Shown here: piece by piece, positions 5,838 through 28,754 of the stretch
How the letters are laid out: each line of letters opens with the position of its first letter
Position numbering within the stretch: the first letter of the stretch is position 1
NCBI GenBank assembly: GCA_001275005.1
Contig: JWZX01003315.1
Span: forward strand, 1 to 42,032
DNA from: Chrysochromulina tobinii
Lineage: Eukaryota
Reading direction: 5' to 3'
DNA: 42,032 nt
Position numbers and translations under genes: made by a program
The notes under the pieces: model-generated
What the model was told of the DNA's origin: nothing
What the model saw: only the letters and a program-made list of their open reading frames with translations
Database searches by the model: none

Positions 5838-6049
5838 GGTCGCGTCTGGATTGGACGGTCGTCGCACTGCCCCTCCAGTAGCGCGTGCAACGCCGCCCCT
5901 TTCACTTTTGGAAAGCCGAGCACGAGGCTGGCTGCTCAGCACAACGAGTTTTGTAAAACTGAGGGCCATATCCACGTTAGATGACCGGGTGACCCAAGCA
6001 ACCTGGCTTATTACCAGGCCGTTACTCGACACTTTGAGTTCATGAAAAA

Positions 6050-8065
6050 ATGCCCGTGACGGCGCCTGCGATGGCGACGACGACGCCGACGGCCACGGCC
6101 ACGGAGACTCACAACTTCGACGTGGTAGTGATAGGAGCAGGCTTTGTGGGCGTCTCAGTCGGCGCCGGCCTCGCAAGCCACGCAGGGGCATGCCGCGACA
6201 ACGACGGCCTGGACCACAGCCGCGTGCAAATCATCGAGCAGGGCCCAGAGTGCGGGGCATTCTGGCTCGGCGGGCACGAGGCGTTGTCGCTGCACAGTCC
6301 GCACCACCGCCTGCCGCACGACGGTGGGCTAGCGTACGACTACCCGATGTTCAAGACTAAGCACGAGGTGCGTGACTACATGAACCGGTATGCCCAGAAC
6401 AAGGGACTCGCACAATGCATGTCCTTTGGCGAGACGGTGCTGCGCATAAGCCACGAGCCCGAAGTCGACAAGGACCGGCCGTGGCGCGTCGCTACTGACA
6501 AGCGCGAACTCCGAGCGCGGCGCGTCGTCGTGGCCACGGGGCTCAACCGGCAGCCCCATATTCCCCACATCCCAGGCAGCGAGGAGCGTGCCGCACACGG
6601 CGCGCGCGCCTTGCGGCATTCGTGGAGCGTGTCGAGCTGCGACGAGTACAAAGGCGAGCGCGTGCTGCTCGTGGGGAGCGGCAACTCCGCGGCCGAACTC
6701 GCCGTGGCGCTGCACCATTCGGGCGCCAAGTCGATCGACATTCTGGTGGACGGGCCGCGCCACTTTGTGAGACGCAGCACGATGGGGCAGATCTTTCGTC
6801 TCTTTCCGTACTTGAGCCTGTCGACGGAGAGCATGGTGCACGATCTGCACCGGTGCACATTTGGCGAGCACACGGCGGATGCCAAGGTGGTCACCGCATG
6901 GGAGCGCTTCCAGGAGGGGCAAGATGAGTTCATAAGGCTTCTTTCCGTCGATCTCGGCCCCTTCGGTATCCAGCGGCCACCGAGCTGGCGGCACGCCGAG
7001 CAGCAGAGCGTCGCTCCTCGCATCCCCGTGTACGACGTGGACCAGCAGCGGTTGCCGCGCTCTGCCGGAGAGGGCGGCATCGTCGGCGGATCCGCAGCAG
7101 TTGGCTACGGCGTCATCGACCTCATTATGAGCGGTGCTGTCGGCATCAAGCGAGGACGCATCCAGCGCTTCACGAGCACCGGCGTCGTCATCGAGGAGGG
7201 GGCCTCGCGTCACGTGACAGCGCGGGCGGGAGCCACCAAAAGTTTGACAGCGGAGGCTGCAACGATGAAGGCGGCGACGGCGGAGGCTGCGACGGCGGAG
7301 GCTGCGACGGCGGAGGCTGCGACGGCGGAGGCTGCGACGACGGCCCCGCCGGGAGGGACGCACCACGCCTACGACGCAGTCATTCTCGCGACCGGCTTTC
7401 GCCACCGCATGGCCGACTTTCTGTGCGCTAAGGACGGGTTGCTTCACACGGCCGCCTCCTTTGGTGCCGCGGACGACGCCGAGGGTGCTCCGATCATCGA
7501 CAGCTGCTCGCGCTCGCGCGTGATCGACTCCATCTACTTTGTGGGCATGGACCAATTCAGGTCGACGGCCTCTCTCGATTGGCCTCCCTGATGACCTCCC
7601 TGATGACCTCTGATTGCCCCCTCTGATTGCCCCCCCCGCTTCAGGTCGACTCTCTCGATTGGCCTCCCTGATGACCTCCTTGATGACCTCTGATTGCCCC
7701 CTCTGATTGCCCCCCCCCGCTTCAGGTCGACTCTCTCGATTGGGCCCGTGCTCGGGTATCGTGGTTACGACGTCGGCGCGGCGATCGCGACCGATTTGTA
7801 CGGTCCGCCCACGAACCCGCTGCGTTTCCCCTCCCTACCGGCCGACGAGCAAGAAGGGAGCAACCCGATCCTGACGCCGAAGCACGCGCTCAAGGTCCTT
7901 GCGGCTGGGGTACTTGTGGGGATAGCTGGCACCCTCGTGATGGGGGCGCTCAAGCGGAAGCCGCGGCCGACAGCTCTGTCAGCCGCCCGAGGCCGCACGG
8001 TCCTCGAGAGCAGGCTAGCCCGCTTCAGCACCGAAGAGCGGCCTCTGACGAAGCCGAGGCCGTAG
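6050..8065 (+). CDS. Class B flavin-containing monooxygenase (FMO/YUCCA-like) with C-terminal membrane anchor; exons 6050-7560 and 7726-8065 (616 aa)
   Basis: FAD motif VIGAGFVG, VVATG, NADPH motif LVGSGNSA, ILATGF; splicing 7561-7725 joins DQFR-STLSIGPVLG in frame; hydrophobic ALKVLAAGVLVGIAGTLVMGAL followed by KRKPR. Confidence 0.85.
7561..7725 (+). other. Spliceosomal intron (165 bp) made of two tandem GT-AG units, 7561-7644 and 7645-7725
   Basis: GT...AG ends, in-frame stop at 7589-7591, removal restores the frame; each unit starts with a copy of the downstream exon start and ends ttcag. Confidence 0.85.
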
Positions 8066-8309
8066 TAAAAGTAGCAGGAGCAAGACGAGAGCCTGTGCTC
8101 CTCTATGATCAACCCAGCAAGAGACTCTGTGCTCTGTGCGCTGCCTCGTCCGGTGAACGCACTTGAGAATCGGAGAGAAAACAAGGTTGCACGCTTCGCA
8201 CTAACTGTACGTTCTTTTTTACAAATGTACTCAAATCATCTTCTTGACGCATGCAATGATTTTTCCTCACATGAAACTTGCATAAACGGGGAAAGCTCAA
8301 GTTCTTGAA

Positions 8310-9371
8310 ATGCTGCTCAGCAAATGCGCCGTGCTTTTGCACAGCAGCGATCGCAATGAGAGCCGGCCCTTTTGGCGCCCGATCTTGGTGACACTGGATC
8401 GTCACTTCCCGCCCGGTCTGTGCGATCTTCACTTTTCGTATGGCGTCGCAGACGCTGAGGCGCACGCTGCTCTCGATGGGCTTCAGCAGCCGTTTACACT
8501 CATCCGTCGCGGCGATGGCGACCAGCTCCTTGGATGGAGCGGAGCACTGCTCAAAGATCTCGAACGGCTTACGGCTTACACCTGGATTTTCCATCTGATG
8601 GACGACGCCATCATCCCCGATCCCATCTCAAGGTTTTCGATCTCCGCAGTGCTCGATGTTGCCCGGAGACGCAACGCGTCCACCATCGCGTTAAACTACC
8701 GAGCCATCTATTACTGGCTCCGCCACACAGTCCTTCACCCTCAAGGTGCCACAGACCATGTGCAGCTTTTCCCACTGGCCTTGGTGACCAGCTCCGAGGT
8801 TGCCTCCGCGCCCGGCGTCAACTCCACACTCAACTTTTATCTTGCCCACCTGGGAAAGTTTACCTTCTCGCGATTCGTGGTCCAGCAGAACTTTGCGCTC
8901 TGGCGACGCGACGCGCTTGCCTGGACACTCCGCGACGCAGGCCCCCAGTCCAACCCACATGAGTGGGAAGCCCGCTTCGCCAACTATGCGAACCTCATCA
9001 GATGGCCTGGAGCCTCACAGGCCCTCGCTGTCTGGTTTCGAGGGCCTGACGGCATGCTGGGCGTCGAGGACACGAGCAGCCTCGGCCGAATCAAGGGCGG
9101 ATTCCCGGCGTGCGCCTGGCTCCGTGCAGCCTCGCGCGTCGGCCTGTCACCCGACTCGGTCCCGGGCGGCAAGGAAGCTGCCTCGCAAACCGGCTACAGG
9201 TTTTGCTACGCGGACGGCTTGCACGGGCTTGGAGCCCAGTTTCTGACGGCAGTGGCCTTGCAGCCAGGGCGCTGCGGCTGCGTGCACGACCACAGGGCCG
9301 TTTCGTCCAGCACTTGTTCTTGCCATGATGCTGGCCTGGAACTGTTGAGATACAACTCGAGCAGTCTATAG
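8310..9371 (+). CDS. Putative GT-A-fold glycosyltransferase-like protein
   Basis: 353-aa ORF; VLLHSSDR...FW, WSGALL...L, hydrophobic strand plus acidic pair IFHLMDD, LWRRDAL...PHEWE; pattern-level resemblance only. Confidence 0.5.
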   Translation: MLLSKCAVLLHSSDRNESRPFWRPILVTLDRHFPPGLCDLHFSYGVADAEAHAALDGLQQPFTLIRRGDGDQLLGWSGALLKDLERLTAYTWIFHLMDDAIIPDPISRFSISAVLDVARRRNASTIALNYRAIYYWLRHTVLHPQGATDHVQLFPLALVTSSEVASAPGVNSTLNFYLAHLGKFTFSRFVVQQNFALWRRDALAWTLRDAGPQSNPHEWEARFANYANLIRWPGASQALAVWFRGPDGMLGVEDTSSLGRIKGGFPACAWLRAASRVGLSPDSVPGGKEAASQTGYRFCYADGLHGLGAQFLTAVALQPGRCGCVHDHRAVSSSTCSCHDAGLELLRYNSSSL

Positions 9372-9643
9372 CGCATGGATCCGTCGTCCAAACGAGCCTT
9401 CGTGCTGCTCGTCCACCGCAGAGAGCGGTCGACCGTCCCGGCACGGTGAAGCACGGTGGTTGTGGTCGTCTAGGCTCTAGCTGCGCGATGAGGGTTGAGG
9501 CGACCTGACAGGGTCCGGCGCTGTAACATCGGTGTACCGTACTGTACCCGAGCTGTGCGCGGGTGATGACCTTTGGCCCGTTATTTTTAAGAACGTTGAA
9601 CAGGGTCTAGACAGTTTACCTTTTGTATAGTACTCCATACTGA

Positions 9644-11854
<2,211 letters not shown>

Positions 11855-11855
11855 C

Positions 11856-12035
11856 TACCGGTAACGCGTGTCCCGTGAACGTTAACACGACAGACGCGAC
11901 AACCGTGCTACGGCACTGTTACTGCCCGCTCAAAATACACACCGTGTGAACGTTAACACGACAGACACGACAACCGTGTGTGTCCCGTGTGTGTCCCGTG
12001 TGTGTCCCGGCTCCCCCCGGTGTCTTACCGGTAAC
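11856..12035. mobile_element. Small non-coding repeat element (MITE-like candidate) bounded by taccggtaac, with a 33-bp internal direct repeat and gtgtgtcccg tandem array
   Basis: taccggtaac at 11856-11865 and 12026-12035; gtgaacgttaacacgacagacRcgacaaccgtg at 11875-11907 and 11946-11978; 3' end recurs at about 35665-35720. Confidence 0.5.
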
Positions 12036-12501
12036 AACATTCACAGCTCACCACCGAACACGACACGTACAACAATTTTTCTCCCTCCCTAGCCGAGCAC
12101 GCCACATCATACACACAAGTTCCACAGCAAACGACCGTCGCGCACATGGGCCACATCCACGCGTCATCACCGAAGCCACGAGCCCTCTATACCTGCCTGC
12201 CTGCCTACCTGCCACACTGCGCCCCTGTTGCTCTTCCCGAAATGCACCGTTCGACGCGAAGAGTCGTGTCCACTCGAACGCGGCGCGAGAACGCGGCAAG
12301 GGTCGTAAAACTGTCGTAAAAGCTGCGACCACTTGCCAAAAATGGTCTCTTGCTGGCATTGGTCATGCCGTCCCCCCGTCCCATGCCTTGTCCATTTCAC
12401 TTCCCACATCTCCCTGCGCTGGTTGGCGCAAGCCTCTCATCTCTCAAGGTTTCAGGACGGAGTGCATGCAGAGCATGTCCATTCGACACGTCCGTCGGAG
12501 A

Positions 12502-15500
12502 TTACGTCGGAGATTGCTCGACCTCGCGCTCGACTTCGTCAACTTCTTCATCGCTCGCGCCGGCCTCGATAAGGAGACGCATGCAATTCAGATGGCCGCG
12601 CAACGAGGCCAGCATGAGAGCCGTGTGGCCGCATGCATCGCGCGCGTCGAGCTCGACATCCTCGGTTCCGAGCAACACGCGCACGATGTCTAGATAGCCC
12701 TCGAAGCTCGCGATATGCAGCGCGTTCTGGTTGCGCCCGTCGCACACACCCACCTTGGCGAGTAGCGATCGGAGGCAATCAGCGGCAATCAGTGGACCAT
12801 TGGAGGCAATCAGAGACCATCAGAGACCATCAGAGACCATCAGAGGCAATCAGAGGTCATCAGAGGCCATCAGAGACCATCAGAGGCAATCAGAGACCAT
12901 CAGAGACCATCCGAGGACAATCAGTGGACCATCCTAAGCCTACCCGGGCGCCGCGCCACACAAGCGCCTGGACGGTCGCAAAGTGGCCCTGCTGGCAAGC
13001 GTGCAGCATGGCCCAGTCCTGCTTGCTCTGGCTGGAACAGCGCCAGATGGGTTGCATGCCACGCACACGCACGCGCTCGGACCCGGGCACGGGATCCTCG
13101 ACGGTACTCGGCCTGTGCACGACCACGTGCGAGAACTGCATCGAGACGACATCAGACGGGTTAGGGTGAGGGTTACCATAGGGTGAGGGTCGAGGCTACC
13201 TGCATCGAGACGACCTCGACGTAGGCGCGCAGGTCGAGTAAGATCGAGGGCAATCAAGGGCAATCAAGGGCAATCAAGGGCGATCAAGAGCAATCACGTT
13301 ACATCAATTATGGGCATTCAACGGAGATCGCACCTGCATCGAGACGACCTCCAGGTAGGCGCGCATGTCGAGGGCGTACGCGTACCATGTGCGCCAGCAC
13401 CGATGGAGCTGCCGGCTAAGTAGGTACCCGACGCCCTGCAAGAACAGCCTCGTCTTGCGGCGACTCAAGCTCCAATAGGCGATCCAGGAGAGCCATGCGC
13501 GTGCGAGATGCCGTCGGCCTATCAGGTGGATCAGCACGCGAGTCATACTGCCGAGCGACTTCCGAAGCTCCATGGCGGTCATGGTGGCGTGCCGCCAGTT
13601 ACCAAAGGCATGCGCGGCGCGCCGCATCGCTAAAAAGGTGACGACCTTGCTCACCTAATGAGGGAGGTCATCAGAGGTCATCAGTGGCCATCAGTAGCAA
13701 TCATTCATCAATTCGAGGGCGACCTCGCGCACCGTCCGCATCGACGCCTTGAGCGCCGACGCGGACTCGACCCAAGCGTTCCAGCCCTTGTGGAGCGGAC
13801 GATGACGGAAGTGGCTCATGCTACTCTGGATGGCTTTGAGCTTGAGCGTGCGCATCTCGTGGTACGCGATCCAAGCTGCGCAGCCACGCGCGAGGTGGCG
13901 GCTCGACAGCTGCCGGATGACGCGCGTCATCAGCGAGCGCAAGCGCTCACTTGCTCGCTTCGTCACGCACAGCGCCTTCCAGCTGCCGAACGCGCGCGCG
14001 CCATGCCGGTTCAAAAAGGAGCCCACGCCCATGCGGACGAGTTGCACCTGATGAGGGAGGTCATCAGAGGTCATCAGGGGCAATCCGCGGCAATCAATCA
14101 TCATCGCGCCCAAATCGCGCCCAGGCGGACGAGTTGCACCATGTGCTCGCGTCCCGAGATCAGATCCACCCAATTGACGAACCCCCTCGCCATATGGAGG
14201 CTCGTCAAGTGCATCAGGCTACGCGTCAACGACGCCCGCAACGACGCGCGCGCCGCGGCGCGCCGTTGGACGTGTGAACGCCAGCTGTGAAACGCCTTGG
14301 ACTGGCCGTGATGGAGTGTGAAGCGCAAGCCTTGGCGCATGAGCGCCGAGAAGGTGCGCGCATGGCCGCCGTACTGCGAGCTCTTGCCCGCCGCCTCGGC
14401 CCAGGAATTCCATCCCTTACCCAGATGCAGGCTGCGCAGCAGCGCGACGGCTCGCGTGACGTGGCGCACGTTGGCCTGACGAGCGTCGACGAAGGCCACC
14501 CAGCCCGCGACGGCACGTGCCTCGCGCTGTCTCCTCAGGACGCGCGCCGTGCGGCCGATGAAGGTGAGCAACTGAAGCTGCCTCGAGCATGCCTCGGCCC
14601 ACGTGCGCAGGGCGCGTGAGAGGCCCCGATGACGCTGGCTGCCCACGACACGTTGGAGTGAGTTGCCCACTTCGCTCTTTCGCCATTCGAACTCGATCCA
14701 GAGGGCCTTCCACACATTGAAGCCGCGCGCGAGGAGGTGGTCGGAGAAGACTCGAACGGCGTCCGTGAATAGAGCCGCGCCGCGCCGGCGCGCCAAGCGC
14801 ACCTTCGTTGCATGCAAGAGGGAGGCAATCAGCATGCAATGGGGAGGCACTCAGCATGCAATGAGGGAGGCACTCAGCATGCAATGAGGGAGGCACTCAG
14901 CATGCAATGAGGGAGGCACTCAGCATGCAATGAGCGCACCTTCGTTGCATGCGCCCACGACGCGAAGCTGCGAGAGAGCGAGTGAGAGGTGAACAAGGCG
15001 ATGCCCTTGCCGAGCAACTCGAGCGCCTCGGCGCGTGTCGCAACCAGCTCAGCCCACGCGTTCCAGCTGCGAGCCATCTGGCGGTGGACGAGATATGCGA
15101 GCATGCGCCGTAGCGACGCGAGCAGTGCTCCCTGCTCCTCGACGCGCTCATGCCACGCATGCCAGCCAAGAGCCATGAGCCGATCGGCCATGCGCCCAAT
15201 CGCGCGACGCGTGGCGATGAATTGGGCGTCGGAGGCGTAGTGGCGTTCGGCCCACGTCGACCAAGCGCGAGCGAGTGCGCTGGAGAGCAAGTGTGCGAGG
15301 GCTCTGCCGACGCGCGCACGCCCCGCCCCGCTGAGTGTGGAGGCCTCCATCCACGTGTTCCACGCGCACGAGAGGGTGCGTGCGCTCAGATGGCTGATCC
15401 CGTGCCTCATTACGTCAGCTGCGTGAGCGTGCGAACGCCAGGTATCGGCCCACGTGTGGTACCCACGTGTCAGGCCGCGCTTGGTGAAGCGGATGAGAAT

Positions 15501-18500
15501 CGCCGACGCCTTCATCAGCTCCGCCCCAATGGCCACCTGCCGCTCCCAGCGAGCGCGCCATACGAGCCAGCCGCGTCCGAGCTCATGCTGACACAAGAAC
15601 GAGAGGACGCGCTTGGCGAGGCGACCACGCGCCGCCCATGCCTCCCAAGCGCGCAGGCCGAGCTTGGCCTTGCGCTCGAAGACGAAGCTGCCCGCCGAGC
15701 GCAGCCTGTGTTTCTCATCCGCCCAGAAGTCAAGGGCGTCCAGCCAGCAGTTCCACGCCCGAGAGATCTGGTGGCCTGTGAGTAGACCGATGGCGCGGCG
15801 CAGTGCCGCGAATGCGTTCTCACGCGCGGAGACGGCGGCGCGCCACGACGACCACCCATACTTGAGCTTGCGCAAGAGCAGGAGGGTGAGCACGCGACGC
15901 ATGGCCGCGAGGCGGTCCGCGCTCTCCCGAGCGGCACAGCATGCGTCTACCCAGCCGCCAAAGCCGCGGCCCATCCGGTGGTGGATCATGTACAAGAGAC
16001 CGCCTCGCAGTGTCTCGCGCATCGCGCCGAGCTCGAGCGCGAACAACGTCCACGTATTCAAAGCTCGTGCGACATGCTGGTGCGAGAGGTACTGCACGAT
16101 GCGTCGAAGTGCGTCGAGCGTACCAGCACGCTCGACGGCGGTCGCGCGCCACGTGTTCCAGCAGCGCGAGAGCGACTGCTGCCTCAGCAGCCGCAGAGCA
16201 TGGCCGGTCAGGGCATCTGCACCGCGCTTGAAATCGCGCTGGAATCGTTGCGATTGCGTCCAGCTCGCAAACGCCCACGCCGCAGCCAGGTGCAGAAAGA
16301 AGCTGGCGGCCCGTTGCACGAGTCGGACGGTCACTGATCGAACGCCACAAACCTCGCGCCACTTGCGCCAGCCTTGCGAGACGCGGAGAGTGATCGCCTT
16401 GCGCACGCCCTGGTGCACCCAGCGCGCGAACTGGCGGCCACGCTCGCGGCACTCAGTCCAGCGAGTCCAGCCACGCACTTTGAGGCAGTTGATCAGGTAG
16501 CGCAGCGCGCACTTCGTCATCTGGCGGCAGGACGCGAGTTTCAGGCACCACCTCGAGAAGCCGACTGCGAGCTTTCGGTTGACCAGGAAGCCTTGCTGTG
16601 GCCAGGCGCTCGAAACCATGTGAATCGGCACCGGCGGCCGCCGGCTCGCACCGAAGAGGCCCGCACGCGACGACGCCACCGAAGAGGCCCGTGATGACAG
16701 GTCCATCGGCGATTGTAGCCACGGCGGCGCGCTACCCCACATCGCACGCGGCGATGCCTTTGAGAGCGGCGGCGTTGTTGCGCCACGAGGCAGCGCACCA
16801 GTGCCACCGGTGGGCATCGTGCAGGCGTTGCTGGGGGGGGGCGTGCCGGCGCGCGACGATGGTGACATGCGTGCCCCCATGTATCCGCCCATCATGACAC
16901 TCGTCTTCAAGTCTCGTGACCCTCGGCTTGAGCTCGGCACCGCTTCGAACGAGGTGGCCATCGAGGCGGCCATAGAAGAGATGATGGAGGCGCTAAAGAC
17001 GGTGGTGAAGGGGGTGGTCTGAACGATGGACATCTGCGACACCGTGGTGTTCTCCTCCTCATCTGCACGCGCGCTGTCGCGCGAACCGCGGCGCGACACT
17101 CCCTCAGACGAGCGCCCCGAGGGCGGTGTGGGCCAGCCGCGCGTTGTCGCCTCCTCCGCCTCGGCCAAGAAGGCAGCTGCCGACGCGGCCAAGGTTGCGT
17201 CTGCTTCGATGCGATCCTTGGCCTCTGAAGCCCTCCGGGCCGCCTCCTCCTCGGCCTTTGCTTTGATTGCCGCTGCTTCCTCCGCCTTCTGAAGCCAAGC
17301 TGCGCGGAGGAGAAAGGCCGCTGCAAGGCGCCCCTTCTCATCCTTCTCCTCCGCCGCCGCCTTCGCTGCCGCGGCTTCGGCGGCGACACGCTCCTCCTCC
17401 TCCGGCAGGGAAGGCGGCAAGGAGTAGGAAGGCAGTCGCTGGGAAATTGGCGACGCCTTTGCTGCCGCTGCTGGAGGGGTACCACTCCCTGCGAGCGGGA
17501 ACGCCGTAACCAAGGCGTCCAATGCAGCCGCAAGCCGTGCGTCCTCCTGCTCCTCCGCCACCCTGACTGCGGCGGCCTCTTTGGCTTTCTCAGCTTTGGA
17601 AGCAGGCTTCTTTTCCATCGCAAGGTGAGCCCTCTCCTCCGCCTCGAGGCCAAGCTTGCGCTTGGCCTGCTGGACGCAACTCTCGAGGAGGGTGCAGAAG
17701 AACGTGTAGAACTCGTCGATCTGGATGAAACCGTCGCCGCTCGAGTCGCTCCGCGCAAAGAGCTCTTCACATCGCTCGTCGCTCGGCATCGCCAGCTCGA
17801 AGCGCTTGCACACCTTGCCCACGCACGCAATCGTCTCGCCCCTGTCGAGCGTGCCGTCGCCGTTGGCGTCTGCAGCGGCGAACTCGGCGTTGCACAGCGC
17901 GCGCCGCACAGGCTCGGTGGACAGAAGGAGGCTTGCCCATTCGACACCCTTGGCTTGTGCCACCTCTCGGAAGGGGAGTGTCGACGACGACGGAGTGCGC
18001 TTGTAGAGGGGCGCGGGCGGCAGCGTGGGCGGCGGCGTCGACAGGGGGGCGGTGCAGAGCGTCGAGGGAGAGGGGAGGGAGAGCGTTGAGAGGCGCTGCA
18101 CCATGCCGACTTCCTCTAGCGGAGTCCAGGAGTGCGCAGATGCCGCCGCCGCTGCTGCCGCCGCTGCCGCTGCCGCTGCGGCCATGCGTGCTTCAGCTGC
18201 CTCGGCCGCTTCCGCCAGGGCTGCTTCGACCTCGGCCTTCGGCTTGAAGTGATCCTCGACGACGGCAAGGTGCATGCGATTAGTAACACGGACGGCACCT
18301 TCACGTGACCGCGCGGCATCCTGTGGGCTTGAGAGCGTCGACGGAGAGGGTGCCGCGTTAGCCGCGAGCGTGGGCGGCAATGGGCGCGACGCCTTATTGG
18401 CATGCGACGGCTTGGTCGCCGCCTCGTCCTCGGACGTCGCCGCCGCGTGTCGCGCGTCGTACTCCGACTTAGCCTTCTTGACGCAAGACTCGAGCACGCA

Positions 18501-18929
18501 CTTGAAGTACCGCTGGTACTCATCAACCTGAATCAGCCCGTCGCCTGACTTATCGCACAGGGCGAAGAGCTGGGCGCACTTGTCGGCGAGCGGCATCGCG
18601 AGATGAAACCGCACGCACATTCGCTCCACGCTCGTGTACGCCTCGATCTTGCCGAGCGTGCCATTGCCGTCAGCGTCCTGCACCTTGAACTCGGCCTCGC
18701 ACAGTCGGCGGCGCTCATCCTTGTCGCTGAGCACGGCCATGGCCCACTGCATGCCCTTGAGCTGCGCCTCATCCTTGGCCACAGCCTCCTTCACAGACGC
18801 CAGGCTGGACTTGAGTTTTTTTATTTCCTTGACCTTAGCAATCGCCCCCAGCTTATCGCCCTTGGTGCGCAAGTGCACGGCCTCAGCCTTTAGAGCCTCG
18901 CACGTGGCCTCGGTCGCGGCGGGCTCCAT
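12502..18929 (-). CDS. About 1910-aa protein: two EF-hand pairs, low-complexity linker, long array of Sfi1-like W-rich repeats, C-terminal ankyrin repeats; exons 18929-14940, 14802-14140, 14047-13733, 13654-13334, 13135-12944, 12753-12502
   Basis: EF loops DADGNGTLGKIE, DKSGDGLIQVDE, DANGDGTLDRGE, DSSGDGFIQIDE; many L.R.W..W repeats; ankyrin NALHIASFEGYLDIVRVLL and TALMLASLRGHLNCMRLLIEAGA; five phase-0 GT-AG introns join six ORF-track pieces in frame. Confidence 0.85.
12754..12943 (-). other. Intron (190 bp) filled with 10-bp tandem repeats (CTGATGGTCT/CTGATTGCCT)
   Basis: GTAGGC...CCAAG; removal joins WRGAR-VGVCDG within an ankyrin repeat. Confidence 0.85.
13136..13333 (-). other. Intron (198 bp) made of two stacked GT-AG units: 13333-13200 and 13199-13136
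   Basis: Both units end in a copy of the upstream exon end GTCGTCTCGATGCAG; removal joins VVSMQ-FSHVV. Confidence 0.85.
13655..13732 (-). other. Intron (78 bp), repeat family core
   Basis: GTGCGC...CCTCCCTCATTAG with in-frame stop; joins ASMRT-VSKVV (an alternative donor 9 nt downstream is also possible). Confidence 0.75.
14048..14139 (-). other. Intron (92 bp), repeat family core
   Basis: GTGCAA...CCTCCCTCATCAG; joins GREHM-VQLVRM in frame. Confidence 0.85.
14803..14939 (-). other. Intron (137 bp) containing about 5 copies of a 23-bp minisatellite CATTGCATGCTGAGTGCCTCCCT
   Basis: Exact 20-bp repeat GCATGCAACGAAG|GTGCGCT spans both junctions; joins HATK-VRLARR. Confidence 0.9.
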
Positions 18930-19160
18930 TACTCTTGCGGATCTCTTGCGTGCGGCCGTTCACACTACCAAATCGAGGTCCGAAATAATTGCATGCCCAC
19001 GAGCACCCTCCCGGAAGTCAGTCGAATTTACACATATCCGGAAGTCATTCAGTTACCCCTTCCTCAGTCAATTCACACTCCCTTGAAGAGATTCACGAGG
19101 AGGACGCCCAGGCAGGGGTGAGGCCAGCAAGAGAGCCCGATCGCGCACTTTCCACCATCC

Positions 19161-20168
19161 ATGCATTTGTCCGGCAGAAGCGCGCTCATCGACATCACCT
19201 TCATCGATGCGCACCTCTTCCTGTGCGAGAGCACCGGCTCGCGGCCGTCGACGCGCTGGGTGTTTCTCGATCAGCTTGCGAAGGATTGCGGCGTGCCTCT
19301 TGCAGCATGCGAGTTGGTTGGTGACTTTTCAGCGGCAATGCACAGCATCACCGCTGAGGCGGATTCGCTGCGCGATGCGGGCATGGTCGGACACCACCAG
19401 GAACTTGTTAGCCAAATCGAGCACCTGCGTGAGCAACGCGCCGAGTGTTTGCAGTCATCCATCCGCCGATCAGCTTCCCGCATTAAGCCTTCGGCAGTGC
19501 GCCTTGGACCGTCGTCATCGTCGTTGTGGGATGTGGCCGCCGTCGCAGCCGAACTCAAGCGTGAGCACTGCTGCGTGATCGACGACTTTGTGGGCGCCGA
19601 CGAGGCGGCGCCGCTTCGGGAGCATCTGGGCTCCATGCGCTCGTCGGGTGCGCTGAAGCCCGGAGAGGTGAGTGCCGGGTTGCAGCAGCAGCGGCGCGGC
19701 GACCTGATGGCGTGGGTGAGCACTGAGGCGGGGGCACAAGCACCGCCGCTGCGTGCGCTGCTCCACTCCATAGACCGTCTCGTCGGTGCGCTCGGCCAGC
19801 AGCCTCTGGTCGCCGACGACCTCGGCCCCCAACGGATGCTCTGCCGTCATGAGATGCAAGTGACGTGCTACCCAGGCAACGGGGCGCGCTACGTGAAGCA
19901 TGTGGACGACCCGCACGGCTCGCGAGGCCGCGTACTGACGCTCATCGCGTACAGCAACCCGCGATGGGAGCCCGGCCACGGCGGTGCGCTGCGGCTGCAT
20001 GTGCCGAGCGGCGCGCGCGACGTGGAGCCACGTGACCGACGGCTCGTCCTCTTTTGGTCCGACGCACGCGCCCCGCACGAGGTGCTCCCCGCGCACCGCG
20101 AGCGGTACGCCGTCTCGGTGTGGTTCTCCGATGCACAGGCGGTCGCCGCGGGCGCGGCGAGTAAGTAG
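19161..20168 (+). CDS. 2OG-Fe(II) dioxygenase, EGLN/PHD prolyl-hydroxylase-like
   Basis: RGDLMAW, CYPGNGARYVKHVD (HxD), GGALRL, RLVLFWSD, PHEVLPA (distal His), RYAVSVW (2OG-binding Arg). Confidence 0.85.
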   Translation: MHLSGRSALIDITFIDAHLFLCESTGSRPSTRWVFLDQLAKDCGVPLAACELVGDFSAAMHSITAEADSLRDAGMVGHHQELVSQIEHLREQRAECLQSSIRRSASRIKPSAVRLGPSSSSLWDVAAVAAELKREHCCVIDDFVGADEAAPLREHLGSMRSSGALKPGEVSAGLQQQRRGDLMAWVSTEAGAQAPPLRALLHSIDRLVGALGQQPLVADDLGPQRMLCRHEMQVTCYPGNGARYVKHVDDPHGSRGRVLTLIAYSNPRWEPGHGGALRLHVPSGARDVEPRDRRLVLFWSDARAPHEVLPAHRERYAVSVWFSDAQAVAAGAASK

Positions 20169-20299
20169 CGTCGAAAGGTACCAAAATCACCCTTTCACCC
20201 TTTCACACTTTCACACTTTCACCTCGCGTGTCGTGTTTTCCACACAGGAAAACAGCTGAATTCACACCAATCTTCACACCCCCGTTCTCTGCCCTCTCG

Positions 20300-21190
20300 A
20301 TGGCGCGGTCCGAAAATGCGTTCGTCGTTCTCGTCGTCGCTGCAAGCGCCCTCTATCTCATGGTGCGACGTCGTAGGCTTCTCTCCGGCGACGTACGGCT
20401 GCCTGCACAAGCTGCGCCCGTGCAGCAGCTGGACGTAGTCGCCAAGGACGTCGTAACGGTGGAGGAGTCGGACGTAGTCCACAACCTGAAGAGTGTGCGC
20501 GCGCGAATGGCCGCTTCCGGACCCGCTACGGCGACGCTCGTCGCTGTTTCGAAGACGAAGCCCGTAGAGCTGCTCCGTGAGGCATACGACGCAGGCCAGC
20601 GCGACTTCGGGGAGAACTACGTGCAAGAGGTGATTGATAAGGCGCCGCTGCTGCCGGGCGACATCCGCTGGCACTTCATCGGCCACCTCCAGTCGAACAA
20701 GGTCAAGGATCTGCTCAAGGTGCCCAACCTGTACGCCGTGCACACGGTCGACACGCTCAAGCTCGCGCAAGAGCTCCAAAAGCGCGCGGCGGCACTGCGG
20801 CCACCCGAGCAGCGGCTGCGTGTCTTCGTACAGGTGAACACCTCGGGTGAGGAATCCAAGTCGGGGTGCGCGCCGGCCGACTGCCCGGCGCTCTGCCGCG
20901 CCGTGCGCTCGAGCTGCGCGGCGCTCGACCTCATCGGGCTCATGTGCATCGGTAAGTACTCAGCTGAGGAAGGCGGTTCGGACGTTGACTTTGCATGCCT
21001 TCGGCAGTGCCGTGTGGCCGTAGCAGGCGATCTGGGCCTGGGCACCCCAGAGGAGCTCGCCATGTCGATGGGCATGTCGCACGACTTCGAGGATGCGCTC
21101 ACGGCTGGCGCCTCGCACGTGCGGGTCGGTTCAACCATCTTCGGCGCGCGGGCTCCCAAGCCAACGGCCAAATCGACGCAGGCCACGTGA
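20300..21190 (+). CDS. PLPBP: Pyridoxal phosphate homeostasis protein (YggS/PROSC/PLPBP) with N-terminal hydrophobic extension
   Basis: LVAVSKTKP, FGENYVQE, WHFIGHLQSNK, QVNTSGEESKSG, GLMCIG, SMGMSHDF, VRVGSTIFG. Confidence 0.95.
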   Translation: MARSENAFVVLVVAASALYLMVRRRRLLSGDVRLPAQAAPVQQLDVVAKDVVTVEESDVVHNLKSVRARMAASGPATATLVAVSKTKPVELLREAYDAGQRDFGENYVQEVIDKAPLLPGDIRWHFIGHLQSNKVKDLLKVPNLYAVHTVDTLKLAQELQKRAAALRPPEQRLRVFVQVNTSGEESKSGCAPADCPALCRAVRSSCAALDLIGLMCIGKYSAEEGGSDVDFACLRQCRVAVAGDLGLGTPEELAMSMGMSHDFEDALTAGASHVRVGSTIFGARAPKPTAKSTQAT

Positions 21191-21515
21191 GAGGGAAATG
21201 AACTGTCGCCACGAGGCCTGCGTCTGACTCGGGCGCGGAGATGGGCGGCGTAATGGCAGTGCGATGCTTAGGCCAAGTTACAGTGTAGATTATGTTGGAC
21301 ACGTTGTACTATAAAGTACTAGAGTAATAGTTTGTGAAAATATATGAGAGAAACACCCTCATATCATAACGTACACACCGCAGCGATCGGCCCACAGCCG
21401 CCGACCCCTGGCCCTGCTCGTCGTCCGTCCCTGCCCTAGAGCGGAGCGCGGCGAGACGGGTTGACTGGTCAGAAGACTACGAGGTAAAGCTCTATGTCGT
21501 CCGTCGGACTCGTCG

Positions 21516-22904
21516 TCAGTCGACTGATGCCCACCGTACGTCGTTCGTGGGGTGGGGTCGAGGCGGCGCATGTAGCTCTACTGAAGGAGGCAGTGCTGTC
21601 GCTCCGCTCTGATCGAAATCGATCAAAAGGCTGCCCTCGTCTACTGAAGGGGGGGGCAGTGCTGCCTCGCTGCTCTCGTCGAAATCGATCAAGAGGCTGC
21701 CCTCGATCTGTTGAAGCAGCTGCCTGCCCTCGAGCCGCCTCCTCGCCTCATGCACACTCAGCACGCCATCCACTGCGATCTCTTCAATGACCTCTGCCGC
21801 CGCAGGAGCATCCGAAGCGGATGATGCCGCCGCCTCCGTCTCTTTATCGGAGGCGGTCGTGCGCAAAGCCGCCTTCGCAGTCGCGATGACGAACTCTCGT
21901 CGTCCTAGCATCGTCACGTTCAATGCTGTAAGCGCGGCCTCGCCCACTGCCGTAATGCGACGTAATCAGTGGCGATCAGTCGCAATCAGTCGCAATCAGA
22001 CGCAATCAGACGCAATCAGACGCAATCAGTGGCAATCACCTGCCGTGCATGCGGCGTGCGAGCACTGCCCCGCCTCGTCGCCCCACTTGTGGCGCACCGC
22101 CGCCTCGACCACCGCGCCGCTCGTCTTACCGATCTCGACCGCGGAATGTTCGAGCTCCTGCCCAATCGTACAGATGGCGGAGATCGAAGCACCGCCGATC
22201 ACCTTAAGTGCCGCGACGGTCGGGGTATCCGGCTGGTTCGTAGCAAGATGCTGAGCTGCTGCCGTGCCGATGGCGCCGGCGACCGCAGCGACGCCCGAGC
22301 CCACCATGCCCGTGAAGCGCAGGGCGGCGTTGGCGACGGTCCGGGTCGTGTTGACTACCTGTATCACCTCGGGAGCCACGAAGGCCTCCCTCTCATCTGG
22401 CTGCACGTGGGTTCGGATCTCGGACAGAGCACACACGAGCCCGTCGGTGATGACGGCGGCGCCGCTTTTGATGCACCGAGCCGCCGCTTGGCCGCCAATC
22501 TGGATCGACATTGCCGCCTCCTCTGCCACCGCTGCCGCAAACAAGCCACCCTCATCGACATCGTTGGAGAGCTCTGACGGCGGAGGCAGACCCAGCATCA
22601 TCGCAAGCCGTTCGCGCGCAGGAAAATCAGAGTGCTCAAAGCGCAGCAATGTGATACCGCCGCCTTGCATGGAGCAGCCCAGCTCAATGCAAGGGACGGT
22701 CCAGAAGATGGCACAACCGTCATCGTCGAGGCTGCGGTCCCACACATCGACGGCTTGGTTGTCAGGTCCATCTGGTGATGGCACGTGTACCAGCCGTCTG
22801 CCTTTCACGATCAGCGATCCCGTGCATTGGACGAAGTGGGTGCCGTCGCCGAGGAGCGCTACGCGAGCGACCGCCTCAAGAATGTGGAATTCGGACGGCA
22901 CCAT
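21516..22904 (-). CDS. Senescence-domain (spartin/ERD7-like) protein; exons 22904-22040 and 21946-21516 (431 aa)
   Basis: Small-residue amphipathic helices and VRHKWGDEAGQ...AVGEAALTALNV, typical of the spartin C-terminal senescence domain; phase-1 intron removal restores the frame. Confidence 0.75.
21947..22039 (-). other. Intron (93 bp) of CTGATTGCGT/CTGATTGCGA 10-bp repeats
   Basis: GTGATT...ACGGCAG; in-frame stop at 22026; ends in a copy of the upstream exon end (CGCAT..ACGGCAG). Confidence 0.85.
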
Positions 22905-23383
22905 TTTGTCGAGCAGTAAACGTCAATGACATCCCTCATCAAGGGGCGGGCGGGCCCTCTGTGAGGGTGACTCATCAGAGGGAAACGATAAGGCCTGCAT
23001 TTTTCTTGTTCACGAACGACGCGCCGGAGACGCGAAGAAGTTTGTACAGTAGTACTTCTCGCAATGTCTCAGGAAAAAAAATGAAGGTGGGGCATGTCTC
23101 ATGTGTGTAGGAATCTACACCTTGTTTCGGCCCGCGGGGACCACCAATACACCAACGCACCCGCGAACTCACTCACTCAACATTATTTGAACTCTTGTAA
23201 CGGCAGAACATACAAGTTTCAACAAAAATCCTTATTTATCGACCTTCTCATTCTCCTTCTCATTGCCAAGGCACGCCACAGCAGCAGCCCTCATTCCTGC
23301 CCTGCTACACGAGGACAGAGACAGTGACGTCTCTCAGAGGCCCAGTTACCATTCTCGGCGCCTAGGCGGAGTTCGCAAAGCAG

Positions 23384-24421
23384 ATGGAGCTCGTAAAGTC
23401 GATGGAAGAACGGTGGGCTGCAGAAGAACGGTGGGCTCTCCGGCAGTTGGCACAGGATTCATCAGAAGAACTCGACGAGCTGCAGGAATTGCGGCTCCTG
23501 CTGCAAAGCGGACCGCCGTCTGATCGGCGCCCCATGGTGCAAAGCGGACTGCCGTCTGACGAGCGGCGCAACCTGCGCAGCATCAGGGAGGACGAGATGA
23601 CAGACAAATATGCCAGTGCACACGCTTTCTTCCCAGTTAGCGGAGTTACCTCCTGGCGGTCCTCGGCAAGCAGCGGCGCGACGAGCGACGGCGCGACGCG
23701 CGGCGCGACGCGCGGCGCGACGAGTGGCGCGACGAGTGGCGCGACGAGTGAAGGCCACCGCCCTCTCCATCTTCTCCGCCCTGTAGCCCAGAAGAAGCGT
23801 CATCCGGCGGCCACCGCGCACGGCATGAAGGCTCAGCCGCGGGTAGATGATGTACAGTCGCCGTCGCCATCACCGTCCCCATCACCGTCGCCATCAGCAC
23901 CGCCGGCACTGCCGGGTGCTGCCGGGCAGATCCCCCCTGGTGCCGGCAAGCGCGCCGTCACGAGCGCCTCAACAGAGCGCCGCACGCACGCTTCCGATCC
24001 ACTCTGCGCCCGAGCAGGTGTGACGAAGCCGAGGGCAGGTGTGGCGGCCCAGTCGGCTGATGATGCACTCTGGGCCCCTGGTGCGGAGCCATCGCCCACT
24101 TCGATCATGGAGTTGATGGCGAAAGTGGCAGAGGCGAAGGCGGGGAAGGCGCCTCGACCTGCAGCCCGAGCGGACCCAGCGCCTCGAACGAGCCATGAGA
24201 AAGAGTCCCTCATGAACGTCACTGGAACATCCAGCGCCACCCAGCACAACGACCCAAAGAAGGTGACCGAGGCGCTCAAGGGTATCTCGGTGCGAGCGGC
24301 CCCCAACCAGCCGTCCCTGCCATCGCCACCGCCACCGGCAATCTCGCCGCCACCAGATTCGTGGGCCCACCAGAAAGGGAACACGCCACGTGGCTACTTC
24401 ATGCGCCTGCGCAAGATGTAA
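23384..24421 (+). CDS. Hypothetical low-complexity protein (coiled-coil start, GATS/GATR repeats, SP repeats)
   Basis: 345-aa ATG-initiated ORF after an AT-rich intergenic region; no recognisable domain; 3' end uncertain. Confidence 0.5.
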   Translation: MELVKSMEERWAAEERWALRQLAQDSSEELDELQELRLLLQSGPPSDRRPMVQSGLPSDERRNLRSIREDEMTDKYASAHAFFPVSGVTSWRSSASSGATSDGATRGATRGATSGATSGATSEGHRPLHLLRPVAQKKRHPAATAHGMKAQPRVDDVQSPSPSPSPSPSPSAPPALPGAAGQIPPGAGKRAVTSASTERRTHASDPLCARAGVTKPRAGVAAQSADDALWAPGAEPSPTSIMELMAKVAEAKAGKAPRPAARADPAPRTSHEKESLMNVTGTSSATQHNDPKKVTEALKGISVRAAPNQPSLPSPPPPAISPPPDSWAHQKGNTPRGYFMRLRKM

Positions 24422-24778
24422 GCTGCTTGCTGCAGCGACGCGAGCAAATGCGCCCACATGGAGCAACAGAGTATGTCGTGTGGCCCTACACGCCACGCGC
24501 AGGTGGGAGTGATCGCAGCGGAGCGCGTTGGCCTTACACGCCACACCGCACGCGGAGGGAGCAGCAGAGCGCGCTCGAGACGGCGCTCGAGAGAGCAGCG
24601 CCACTGGATAGGCAGATGCAGCGTAACTGCCGACTGGATAGGCTCGGGTCGGCTGGTCGCGGCGCGGGCTCGTGAACATCCCGCGCCGCGCCGGGCGCGG
24701 TTGCCGCAGCGGTTCCTCGAGCCGTCACACAGTCACCGCGGAGTACGAGTGAATACAAGCGCGTGAACCAAAAGTGTT

Positions 24779-25393: not shown

Positions 25394-25558
25394 CCTCGGT
25401 TTTGCAGTGGTGTCGAATTTACAAACATCTTGACTGTGAACGGGTATTGTGTGCTATGAATTAGTTTCGAGTTGAAAAGGTCCGAGTTGGGCGTACGCGT
25501 CAGCAGTGACCTCCCTCCGCTCACTCTCACACACAAAACCACGTCGTGACGACCTCGA

Positions 25559-28357
25559 CTACACCGTAACACGATGAGAGACAGACGAGGGCCGCAACGC
25601 CACCTGCTCCTCAAACACGTAGCACGGCCTTCGGGTGAGAGGCACTCTCGGAGTATGGTGTGAAAGCCGCGGCGCGTGGTGCCCTGGGGAGCCCAGCTTG
25701 ATCCTTGGTCTCCGGCCTATCGGCGGGCCTATCGGCGGGCCCACCGGCGGGCCCACCGGCGAGTGGAGCGGGTGCCCCATCTTAGGGGCCTGCCCCATCG
25801 TCCACACCTCTGCGTCCTCTTGTGGGGTGGGCGCTGCCGGCGTGGATGGCGTCCCTGATTCCATGCTGATTGCATTCCTCATCAGGTGGGCTCCCTCACG
25901 GCGCCGCCGCACGATCGAAAGCAGATCTTCTCGCTCTTGGAGCCAGCTGCTATTGGCCTTCTGCCACAGCTGCCATCTGGCTTCGAGCTCCGTGTGCGCC
26001 CTGTTGCCTTGCCCCAATCTGCTCACCAATCTGCTAGGATGCGACTCGGCGCCCGGTATGGCGCTCGACTTGGCGCTCTGCTCGGCGCTCTTCTCGGCGA
26101 TTCTCGAGAACGCCGAGTTCGCGAACGGGCCGGCGGGCGTGCGAGCTTGTGGATCAGGCCACCGACGCACCGAGATCGGGTCGGAACCAAACAAGGTGAA
26201 GCCATCGGAACAAGGTGGAGCGCGATTCCATCGTCTCGCTAGCGGAGACCCATCGGCTCCAAATAAGACGTCATTATCGTCGCCGAGGGCATGCGACTCC
26301 AAAGACTGCCGTGGCCGCACTCGACCCACTCCTCTGATTGCATGCTGATTGGGTTCCTCATCAGGTGGGCTCCCTGGCCGCACTCGACCCACTCCCGGCT
26401 GCCTCGCTGATGGGCGCGCGGACGACGCGCGTACTGGCTTGAACGGCACGTCGAGCCTCGTGGACAACACCATCTGTGCCACTGTCTGTGCCACTGTCTG
26501 TGCCACTGTTTGTGCCACTGTCATCTCTTTGCCGACCTCTTTCACTGTGTTTGCCAATGCCCTCTCTTCGCCGACCCCTTCAACTGTGTGTGCCACTGTC
26601 TTCGCTTCGCCGACCTCTTCGCGGGGAATGCGATTTCTCCGACTGCGCGGCGTCAGCTTCTCGTCAACCTTCGCGACGACCAAGTCGGGCGGGCTGATGA
26701 ACACGTCATCGCCTCCGGCAGACTCAGGTGCGGGCGTGACGGCTACTCCCTCAATGCGCGGCCACTCCCTCAAAGCCTTCTTGAGCTTCGCTACCACGCC
26801 CGCCTCCTTGAGCTTTGCTGCCGCTCGTGCTGACGACGTGACCCGCGCCTCGATGGCCGCCTTCACCACTCTGGCAACGGCTTCCTCCTTGGCACGTCTG
26901 GCTGCAGCTAGCTCTTCCTGCTTGGCTGCCTCTTCCTTCTCGATCTTGTCCGCAGAGCCCTTTTGCGCCTTTGCCCACGCCGCTTCTTGCGCCACGCGTG
27001 AAGCGTGCAGTTCCTTGAGTGCCTTTGCAATCGCTGCTCGCTTCGTAATCAAGCGATTGCGATTGCGTTGCGCTGCCTTTGCCGCCGCCGCCCGTTGCTC
27101 CTTTTCGGGTAAGAAGGAGGTGGCGGCCAAGAAGGAGAAGAAGGAGAAGCCTTCTCCTTCTCCTTCTTTGCTCGGCTTTCTTGCCCGCCTCCGCTCAGCC
27201 TCCACAGCTTCCTGCCTCCGCTCAGCCTCCACAGCTGCCTGCCTCCGCTCAGCCTTCACAGCTGCCTGCCTCCGCTCAGCCTCCACAGCTGCCTGCCTCC
27301 GCTCAGCCTCCACAGCTGCCTGCCTCCGCTCAGCCTTCACAGCTGCCTGCCTCCGCTCAGCCTCCACAGCTCCCTCAATCATCTCCGCCATCTCCGCCGC
27401 GGCCGCCCGTTGCTCCTTTTCGAACAACGAAAAGGAGACGCCTTTTTCTTGTTTGCTCGGCTTTCTTGCCCGCCTCTGCTCAGCCTCCACAGCTTCCTCA
27501 GTCTTCTCCGCCATCTCCACTGTCGTCACCGCCATCGCCACCGCCTTCTTCGCCACCGGCGCCGCCGTCGCGATCCGCCGGCGGCGCCCCAATCGCCGTC
27601 CCCCTGACTGCGGCTGCCCCCCTGACTGCGGCTGTCCCCCTGTCCCCCTGTCCCCCTGTCCCCCTGTCCCCAATCGCTGTCCCCCTTGGATGACTGCGGC
27701 TGCCTTGCCAGAGCGCATCTGCTCGAGGATGGCTCCGCGCGCATAGCGCAGCGATGCGAGAGCCGTCAATGTGACGCTGATCGAGGCGACGCGCTTGCCA
27801 TGACGATCGAGGACGTCAATGGCCTGGTTTGTCGGCTCGTGCTCACGCTTCAGCAGGTCCTTGAGGTTCACGTGCGCCAGACCGAGCTCCTGCTCATCGT
27901 CGATCGCCGCCGCCATGACGGCGTCGACGGGAGTGCTCAGCCCGGGGGCTGTTACATGTATCACCTCGTCTGGGTGCTCGGCGTTCAGGCCGGCCTTGAG
28001 CACAAAGTACACGTCCGAGTCTTGCTCCTCGACCGAATTGAGCGCCTCGCACATAGGCTCCCACAGCGGCGTCCCCGGCGAAAGGGGCAGTAGCTCGTGC
28101 ACGTCGAGCAACACCGGGTCGAGCGAGGCGGGGCGAAGCCGGCTTGAGCGGAGCCGTACCTCGAGCTCGTGGGCTCGACCAAACGGGTCGATGGATATCC
28201 ACACGTGCTGCTTCGTCTGCTTCAGCTCTCGCAGCAACGGCGGCTCAAGCTGCAGCGTGTGCACCGAAAGCGTGATCGGCCCGGTCGGTGTTCCTTCCCT
28301 GTCGCCCAACTGTTTGGAAGCCTGCTCGGGCTCGTGCTCTGGAGTCAAGCCAACCAT
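25559..28357 (-). CDS. 932-aa protein with N-terminal C2 domain (RPGRIP1 C-terminal-type), IQ-like motif, coiled coil and disordered tail
   Basis: ITLSVHTLQL...VWISID...VYFVL...ELGLAHVNLKDLL...IDVLD...VASISVTLTALASL C2 strand pattern; AAAVIQ; AERRQAAVE repeats. Confidence 0.6.
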   Translation of the reverse strand: MVGLTPEHEPEQASKQLGDREGTPTGPITLSVHTLQLEPPLLRELKQTKQHVWISIDPFGRAHELEVRLRSSRLRPASLDPVLLDVHELLPLSPGTPLWEPMCEALNSVEEQDSDVYFVLKAGLNAEHPDEVIHVTAPGLSTPVDAVMAAAIDDEQELGLAHVNLKDLLKREHEPTNQAIDVLDRHGKRVASISVTLTALASLRYARGAILEQMRSGKAAAVIQGGQRLGTGGQGDRGTGGQPQSGGQPQSGGRRLGRRRRIATAAPVAKKAVAMAVTTVEMAEKTEEAVEAEQRRARKPSKQEKGVSFSLFEKEQRAAAAEMAEMIEGAVEAERRQAAVKAERRQAAVEAERRQAAVEAERRQAAVKAERRQAAVEAERRQEAVEAERRRARKPSKEGEGEGFSFFSFLAATSFLPEKEQRAAAAKAAQRNRNRLITKRAAIAKALKELHASRVAQEAAWAKAQKGSADKIEKEEAAKQEELAAARRAKEEAVARVVKAAIEARVTSSARAAAKLKEAGVVAKLKKALREWPRIEGVAVTPAPESAGGDDVFISPPDLVVAKVDEKLTPRSRRNRIPREEVGEAKTVAHTVEGVGEERALANTVKEVGKEMTVAQTVAQTVAQTVAQMVLSTRLDVPFKPVRASSARPSARQPGVGRVRPGSPPDEEPNQHAIRGVGRVRPRQSLESHALGDDNDVLFGADGSPLARRWNRAPPCSDGFTLFGSDPISVRRWPDPQARTPAGPFANSAFSRIAEKSAEQSAKSSAIPGAESHPSRLVSRLGQGNRAHTELEARWQLWQKANSSWLQEREDLLSIVRRRREGAHLMRNAISMESGTPSTPAAPTPQEDAEVWTMGQAPKMGHPLHSPVGPPVGPPIGPPIGRRPRIKLGSPGHHAPRLSHHTPRVPLTRRPCYVFEEQVALRPSSVSHRVTV
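27190..27370 (-). repeat. 27-bp coding minisatellite (about 6 copies, AERRQAAV[E/K])
   Basis: ccgctcagcctYcacagctgcctgcct tandem array. Confidence 0.9.
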
Positions 28358-28754
28358 TCGGCCAGCAGTTTCTGTTCGATCTGATCGTCAATTCGGACGC
28401 GGTTGTTCAAGGTCATGAAGGAAATGCATGCGGAAACCAACACTCAAGATTCCAAATTAGTCACATCGAGAACACAACAGTACACGGCCTTCGTACGCAT
28501 GCTTCGCTGGCATAACTGATGTCATCTCTCACGCGCTCAGAAGGCGTTGACGATCGTCACGGCTGGTCATGTCGCACAGACGAGCAGAAGAGAGAAGTGC
28601 TACCTTCACCACTACACGGTGCGCGCGCGGACCCGTCATCTCATCTGTGCGCAGGGTGAAACTGCTGCCCAAGGACCTTGCCTATAGAGTCATCTGGGGT
28701 ATCATCTGGAGAATGGTTGACTGGATGACTGCCGTCCGATGATGGTGTCCAGAG

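Follow-up and report, generated by a model that had tools for sequence, protein, structure and literature searches.

Tandem CTGAT arrays of Chrysochromulina tobinii as the probable body of a family of young introns copied in part from existing introns

Tandem repeats of 10 to 11 bp are enriched in the introns of Emiliania huxleyi. The repeats described here resemble these in belonging to a haptophyte, in their similar period and in their intronic position. Introners are a second parallel. In the accessible portions of the literature on them (bioRxiv 10.1101/2022.06.06.494994 = PMC9860276; bioRxiv 10.1101/2020.10.14.339549; PMC12130899), they are like the present introns in that similar introns occur at unrelated loci, one splice site is carried and the other comes from a target duplication, and the copies show gene enrichment, one favoured orientation and a phase-0 bias. 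Gene enrichment is reported for the introners of marine Chrysochromulina in the accessible rows of the PMC9860276 supplement. However, introner duplications are described in those same portions as fixed and short (3-8 nt), whereas the ones found here are variable and 7-60 nt long; here, in addition, either end may be the one carried, a tandem 10-mer of variable length makes up the body, and the copies do not resemble one another from end to end. Introns ascribed to staggered double-strand-break repair in Daphnia pulex (PMC4202315, PMC3443670, as far as their accessible text goes) also have filler, internal repeats and, at one end of the intron, a direct repeat of the exon end that adjoins the other, but the Daphnia repeats measure 4-12 bp and the fillers are AT-rich with no shared splice cassette, in contrast to the genome-wide filler family and conserved cassettes of C. 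tobinii. Two further routes appear in the accessible text of PMC3443670. Tandem duplication of AG|GT is matched by our mixed-type introns A and G, which take both sites from such a duplication, although most cases here take one site from the duplication and carry foreign filler. Template switching by reverse transcriptase, named there only as a proposal, would predict sense orientation, confinement to exons and a 3' skew, as seen here. Two other papers were set aside as matches: PMC12403724, whose accessible text describes seamless insertion without duplication, and PMC11146597, on the strength of its listing.

Two proteins of the window share 90% clusters with proteins named Chrysochromulina parva, which places the window in a freshwater Chrysochromulina. 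The genome of C. tobin has a GC content of 63.4% and about one intron per gene according to the available part of PMC4580454. In the accessible part of the PMC9860276 supplement, "tobin" occurs only in a list of screened genomes and the 10-mer was not found, and the literature searched, which mostly excluded subscription papers and bioRxiv supplements, held no description of the 10-mer family or of the two-type architecture. Added here are the mirror types, the microhomology, the antisense survivors, the absence from intergenic DNA, the 3' skew and the branch-point tests.

The window, by which we mean the whole 42,032-nt stretch of contig JWZX01003315.1 (assembly GCA_001275005.1) that was analysed, was examined around the following gene and intron.

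12502..18929, minus strand, host gene of intron B, with EF-hands, a Trp-rich repeat region and C-terminal ankyrin repeats
12754..12943, minus strand, intron B, GT-AG, 190 nt, which houses the CTGAT array
12778..12792, minus strand, last two CTGAT cores of intron B, branch-point candidates

The Trp-rich region, which we take to be Sfi1-like, had no Pfam match. Six filler introns lie in this gene, all within its 3' part. The array of intron B (12768-12933, minus strand) is a period-10 repeat of 16.3 copies with the consensus CTGATKRCCT. The preliminary description had seen 10-bp units of the kinds CTGATTG, CTGATGG and CTGATGA on the sense strand of 12766..12932, and the count bears this out: the minus-strand reading holds 13 CTGAT cores (6 CTGATTG, 6 CTGATGG and 1 CTGATGA) spanning positions -168 to -26 relative to the acceptor. 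Each of the three frames of intron B contains stop codons, AG is absent beyond base 11 of the intron, and its removal together with that of the five introns upstream leaves a single open frame ending in the ankyrin repeats. A relative at 61% identity (P0001/P0002) reads without interruption over the intron B junction and over the junction of introns C and D, on contigs of 1.3-1.5 kb that may be transcripts or intron-less genes. The terminal duplication of intron B is weak (5/7 on the left, 4/5 on the right) and by itself not significant.

Nine sense introns in the window contain this or a related filler (A, B, C, D, E, F, G, H and K). Those other than B are as follows; "3' type" and "5' type" refer to the end at which a shared cassette lies.

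7561..7725, plus strand, intron A, in a flavin monooxygenase-like gene; a unit made of exon copy, filler and CAG is present twice in tandem
13136..13199, minus strand, intron C, CCCTAA/CCCTCA-like filler; its 3' end copies the upstream exon end
13200..13333, minus strand, intron D, 5' type; GTGCGATCTCC cassette, TTGAT units, no CTRAY; 39-nt copy (36 matches) of the upstream exon end
13655..13732, minus strand, intron E, 3' type; start of the downstream exon duplicated over 13 nt (11 matches); CCTCCCTCATTAG cassette at its end; last CTGAT at -17
14048..14139, minus strand, intron F, 3' type; start of the downstream exon duplicated over 22 nt (21 matches); CCTCCCTCATCAG cassette at its end; last CTGAT at -17
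14803..14939, minus strand, intron G, 23-bp CTGAG units with CTGAT in the last unit only (-27); 20-nt duplication across AG|GT
21947..22039, minus strand, intron H, 5' type, in a senescence-domain gene; filler-derived donor GTGATT; its 3' end copies the upstream exon end
33220..33295, minus strand, intron K, in a TTLL gene, 5' type; GTGCGATCTCC cassette; upstream exon duplicated over 29 nt (28 matches)

The same CTGAT units had been claimed for the other introns, which is true of some and not of all, as intron D is built of TTGAT units without CTRAY, intron G of CTGAG units with one CTGAT, and intron C mostly of CCCTAA-like sequence. Runs resembling telomeres (CCCTAA/CCCTCA/CCCGAA) recur as a second filler, at 13136-13199 of the window and at loci L008, L035, L046, L065 and L072 of the wider sample described below; in several cases they lie near intron 3' ends, and CCCTAAC also holds a CTRAY. 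Introns C and D (13136-13333) adjoin with an exon of zero length between them, so that they are candidates for recursive splicing or may be one intron of 198 nt. At 14048-14075 (minus strand), the TCATCAG that ends the cassette and the CTGATGA that starts the unit are reverse complements, which would permit a hairpin over branch site and acceptor; support for it was weak (z = -2.2 for intron F and not significant for three other introns), and we do not regard it as functional.

For intron K, homologous ORFs at 51-69% identity, which may in part be transcripts, are continuous without the intron, and every close TTLL relative whose sequence extends to the junction reads into the intron, with no empty allele among them. 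The absence of K at 51-69% identity and its presence in close relatives fit a lineage-specific gain that is fixed among the sampled relatives. In four RNA runs, no splice or lariat joints were seen for 6000-24000 among those listed; the contigs looked like DNA carry-over, and coverage of this region was thin and even, intergenic and intronic DNA included. Four further runs over 7000-26600 gave no empty allele among the 15 joints listed of 80, and depth in filler bins ran to hundreds or thousands as against about 5-10 elsewhere.

The window also has a high-copy intergenic element (11860-12035, 60-110 and 35660-35720) with GTGTCCC repeats and ACCGGTA ends, whose depth in the four further runs reaches thousands and which looks like a separate dispersed repeat near gene boundaries. 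An ORF of 708 aa (9647-11770, minus strand) falls with cluster members named S-formylglutathione hydrolase and S-(hydroxymethyl)glutathione dehydrogenase and is apparently a predicted fusion of two formaldehyde-detoxifying enzymes.

A wider sample was assembled by a pattern scan of metagenome contigs, which returned 137 loci (708 kb) and is thus selected by that pattern; one of them, L015, overlaps the first 2686 bases of the window exactly. Host strands were called with a codon model trained on the genes of the window and on filler-free ORFs of this sample. Similar fillers occur at many unrelated loci, in 336 distinct clusters. Segmentation of the loci of at least 3 kb placed 148 of 202 clusters in sense coding sequence on both sides and 34 in sense on one side; 11 were non-coding on both sides (by eye all in long introns) and 9 were antisense or mixed. 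Between opposite-strand genes, 52.7 kb of DNA contained no filler (a lenient signature matched twice, neither being a filler by eye), while 230 sense sites were counted in the 528 kb made up of genes and same-strand gaps, from which simple proportion predicts about 16-23 in the 52.7 kb. Within 68 complete genes, whose ends come from the segmentation and are approximate, 130 sites are distributed over fifths from the 5' end as 5/24/37/33/31 (p=0.006; per-gene p=0.0008). The lack of filler in this intergenic DNA and the 3' skew suggest a process linked to transcribed exons. When loci were compared with one another, overlaps were near-identical and alignments of at least 200 nt included no presence/absence case, and a search of viral contigs with two patterns returned no match.

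The sample reveals that these introns are chimeras of shared and local sequence. Flanking direct repeats with a score of at least 11 were found at 116 of 298 clusters, as against 0.7% of shuffled pairs, with a median length of 21 nt and 57 of the 116 perfect; in about 60% of clusters, intron B included, the duplication is below threshold. GT/GC-AG pairs could be anchored on the duplication in 91 of 285 clusters (3.8% in the comparison), and removal restored the frame in 48 of the 52 cases with confident frames. A scan blind to the motif found 37 frame-breaking introns flanked by duplications, 27 with at least two units and the other 10 with related cassettes or units by eye. With GT/GC-AG ends and a frame restored by their removal, these segments are as U2-type spliceosomal introns should be and would, judging from their sequence, be spliced. 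The motif-blind scan also returned 21 unbroken duplications of the kind seen at 41160-41382 of the window, an in-frame tandem duplication of 114 bp at 98% identity and without filler.

A curated set of 65 introns was drawn from the 91 anchored and 37 motif-blind cases. Duplicates were excluded, as were cases flanked by filler and cases that had stops or scored low as coding sequence, and L113 was taken out manually; an antisense case, L002, stayed in the mixed class. The set consists of 33 introns of the 3' type, 23 of the 5' type and 9 mixed, with duplications of 7-60 nt in continuous lengths and no fixed short target duplication. A 3'-type intron opens with a GT-starting copy of the downstream exon start (8-60 nt), which supplies the donor, continues with filler and is closed by a shared cassette, most often CTGATKRCCTCCCTCATCAG (24/33). 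The 5' type is its mirror image: after an exon ending in CAG, the intron starts with a shared GT cassette or with a GT form of the unit, filler follows, and an AG-ending copy of the upstream exon end (7-39 nt) gives the acceptor. In mixed-type introns such as A and G, both splice sites come from a duplicated AG|GT. The 3' cassette was met in 180 contexts at 67 loci, and GTGCGATCTC in 17 contexts at 13 loci. The exon after the 3' cassette begins with GT in 55 of 70 cases and with GC in 8; the exon upstream of 3'-type introns ends in AG in only 8 of 33. In the 17 of 56 junctions where it could be tested, microhomology between copy and filler averaged 3.2 nt in the 3' type (0.55 expected; 11/33 junctions) and 3.3 nt in the 5' type (0.84 expected; 6/23 junctions). 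An AG at -20 to -4 is present in only 6 of 23 exon copies of the 5' type, as against 66% expected, and phase 0 is favoured (41/65). Tandem re-duplication of the whole unit is common, as in intron A and at L007, L017 and L025. By inspection, the printed intron ends had no terminal inverted repeats or end-to-end similarity, one end being a copy of the host exon. At two loci (L116 near 300 and L059 near 11585), the duplicate starts with GA or CT instead of GT; these may be non-canonical donors or products of imprecise splicing.

Filler in sense orientation had been thought to be pre-equipped for splicing by its units. That view has to be given up, since the splice sites come from the oriented end cassette and the exon duplication. 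The U2 branch-point consensus is CTRAY, and the further claim that each unit supplies a branch site survives as far as the match to that consensus, but no more than the final one to three units are close enough to the acceptor to act as branch points, their CTGAT preceding it by 17-37 nt. In 56 of the 65 curated introns a CTRAY stands 15-45 nt ahead of the AG, as it does for 3.3% of 391 exonic AGs, an enrichment that follows largely from the presence of the array at all; the last CTRAY is at -17 in 19 of 33 3'-type introns. No selection was detected on the last unit (CTRAT in 50/56 last and 279/349 inner units, p=0.14) or on spacing (median gap from last core to AG of 28 in the 5' type, mirror gap in the 3' type of 29.5, p=0.44). 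Several 5'-type introns have AGs between the last core and the proposed acceptor. The common units score only 3-4 out of 6 against the conserved U2 motif, and an Rfam search of the window gave no match. One of the last units, a CTGAT among the last three, is likely to be the branch point, and in intron B the adenosines at 12789 (-36) and 12779 (-26) are the likely candidates.

A sister cassette, of which there are 45 contexts at 24 loci (L001, L007, L012, L021, L041 and others) and none in the window, consists of an invariant TGCTCAC, a pyrimidine tract and CAG. In 33 of 41 cases the A of its TGCTCAC falls 20-35 nt ahead of the first AG, with a median of 27, which is the place of the second-last unit of the array (-27). 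Within 120 nt, 30 of the 41 have no CTGAT unit; duplications were found in 15 of 41, and 14 are sense, 1 antisense and 26 uncalled. The CTGAT array, which is likely to be an amplified copy of the branch segment of the end cassette that it accompanies, is neither sufficient nor needed for introns of this kind.

Orientation was the other argument for the branch-site idea. Two inserts in the window appear to run against their host, a stop-free minus-strand ORF of 942 codons (25559-28387) that contains them near 25855 and 26334.

25855..25895, plus strand, insert I, short filler and cassette, antisense in ORF 25559-28387; only a 7-nt repeat, 59 nt apart
26313..26395, plus strand, insert J, filler and cassette enclosed by 20-nt direct repeats that lie 63 nt apart; antisense and in frame in ORF 25559-28387

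Because the codon signal of this ORF is weak at I and J and both are also shaped like a plus-strand intron, the antisense call is likely but not certain, and insert I is ambiguous as nothing longer than its 7-nt repeat flanks it. The two share 10 downstream bases beyond CAG. The preliminary description had reported a strict strand bias of eight out of eight; a strong bias stands and its strictness does not, the window having 9 of 11 in sense, and a genome-wide check agrees with 236 sense and 10 antisense among 336 clusters (3 mixed, 87 uncalled). Branch sites can be part of the reason, as the sense strand is the splice-friendly one, but the AG and stop content of the units by strand adds further causes. 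Sense units have no AG and put stops into all three frames, and antisense units have one or two AGs each, no CTRAY and no stops. A sense copy must thus be spliced because of its stops, and an antisense copy, having none, can be translated. The best reading is that antisense copies survive mainly as in-frame peptides. Among antisense inserts with a clear duplication, the length is a multiple of three in six of seven (L002, 315 nt; L014, 48; L017, 33; L063, 78; L113, 84; insert J, 63; the exception is L064, 55, host unclear), as against an even split of sense introns by length modulo three (33/31/27), which points to selection on inserts of both orientations. L032 and insert I have no clear long duplication. 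Six other candidates for antisense copies (L008 at 13394, L035, L041, L046, L066 and L070) were set aside as sense introns or unclear.

We think it probable that the arrays are the body of a genome-wide family of young introns that arises by template switching from existing introns, followed by selection. A shared filler family with conserved splice cassettes suggests that existing introns act as the templates. A polymerase copying a gene would jump at a microhomology of a few bases onto an existing intron, copy one splice end and some 10-bp units, and return upstream in the host gene, leaving a duplicate of host exon as the source of the other splice site; the same process could yield both mirror types. 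Because a 3'-type intron used as template already has GT after it, copying from it would favour landing on a GT of the host that is then used as the donor. An array may be of benefit in that, wherever in the repeat a copy is cut, some CTGAT stays near the acceptor. Selection would then retain sense copies in which GT-AG is restored, together with a small number of antisense copies that keep the reading frame. A switch at the DNA level, in repair at transcribed genes, would explain the antisense inserts, and a switch during reverse transcription of RNA would explain why the copies are in sense, keep to exons and are skewed to the 3' side. On its own, the DNA-level switch fails to account for the filler-free intergenic DNA, and the RNA-level switch for the antisense inserts; the present data do not separate the two.

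Among the other explanations, a non-autonomous retroelement, that is, a SINE-like introner inserted by target-primed reverse transcription with a constant 3' end, a truncated 5' end and a variable duplication, describes the 33 3'-type introns well, with their fixed end, variable start, 8-60-nt duplication and 5' microhomology, and about 5% of classified introners derive from non-LTR elements in the accessible part of PMC12130899. We nevertheless consider it unlikely. The 5' type (23/65), with its fixed 5' cassette and variable 3' end, is the mirror image of what such an element leaves; several unrelated cassettes share one footprint; the printed introns have no poly(A) tail; intergenic copies were not found; and inserts I and J continue past CAG into their 10 shared bases. 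Duplications that start exactly at the junction, sense orientation, confinement to genes and both mirror types would also follow if an older filler intron had been broken and partly repaired from the spliced cDNA of its gene, so that the introns were remodelled rather than new. Such abortive loss, however, needs introns with two native ends, whereas 63 of 70 exons after the 3' cassette start with GT or GC and AG ends the upstream exon in only 8 of 33 3'-type introns; the duplicated antisense inserts would have no intron as their source, and the homologous ORFs at 51-69% identity lack intron K. We regard it as improbable.

Slightly less credit still can be given to the strong form of the branch-site idea, in which filler is inserted at random, every unit is a branch site and this alone causes the strand bias. 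CTGAT does fit CTRAY and the antisense strand has none, only the last unit of intron G reads CTGAT, and the sense bias is strong; yet both selection tests were null (p=0.14 and p=0.44), the sister family mostly lacks an array, cassette and duplication supply the splice sites, and random insertion predicts many intergenic copies, of which none was found. A classical DNA-transposon introner (MITE) with ends blurred by later slippage is very improbable, for although the accessible parts of the sources report introners in marine Chrysochromulina MAGs, one family with a 4-bp target duplication (bioRxiv 2022.06.06.494994), and 56-100% of introner copies in genes across 16 MAG rows (PMC9860276 supplement), duplication length here is continuous over 7-60 nt, no single element supplies both ends of an intron, and the printed introns have no terminal inverted repeats.

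If template switching from existing introns is the source, the genome might, as a more tentative possibility, house a self-feeding intron factory without a transposase. Any intron could serve as template, each new intron would be half old intron and half host exon, a GT or AG on which copying happened to land would become the missing site, and a periodic array of branch sites would make a cut at any point spliceable. For annotators, unspliced or antisense filler gives recurring junk peptides, and introner screens seek an end-to-end similarity that these chimeric introns lack. How spliceosomal introns come into being has long been debated, and the mechanism can be put to the test in an alga that grows in culture and has hundreds of young examples, many of them with perfect duplications. 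Were the switch to take place in reverse transcription, a single step would account for the sense orientation, the confinement to exons and the 3' skew, and C. tobinii would offer a genome-scale natural case of intron gain by template switching of reverse transcriptase.
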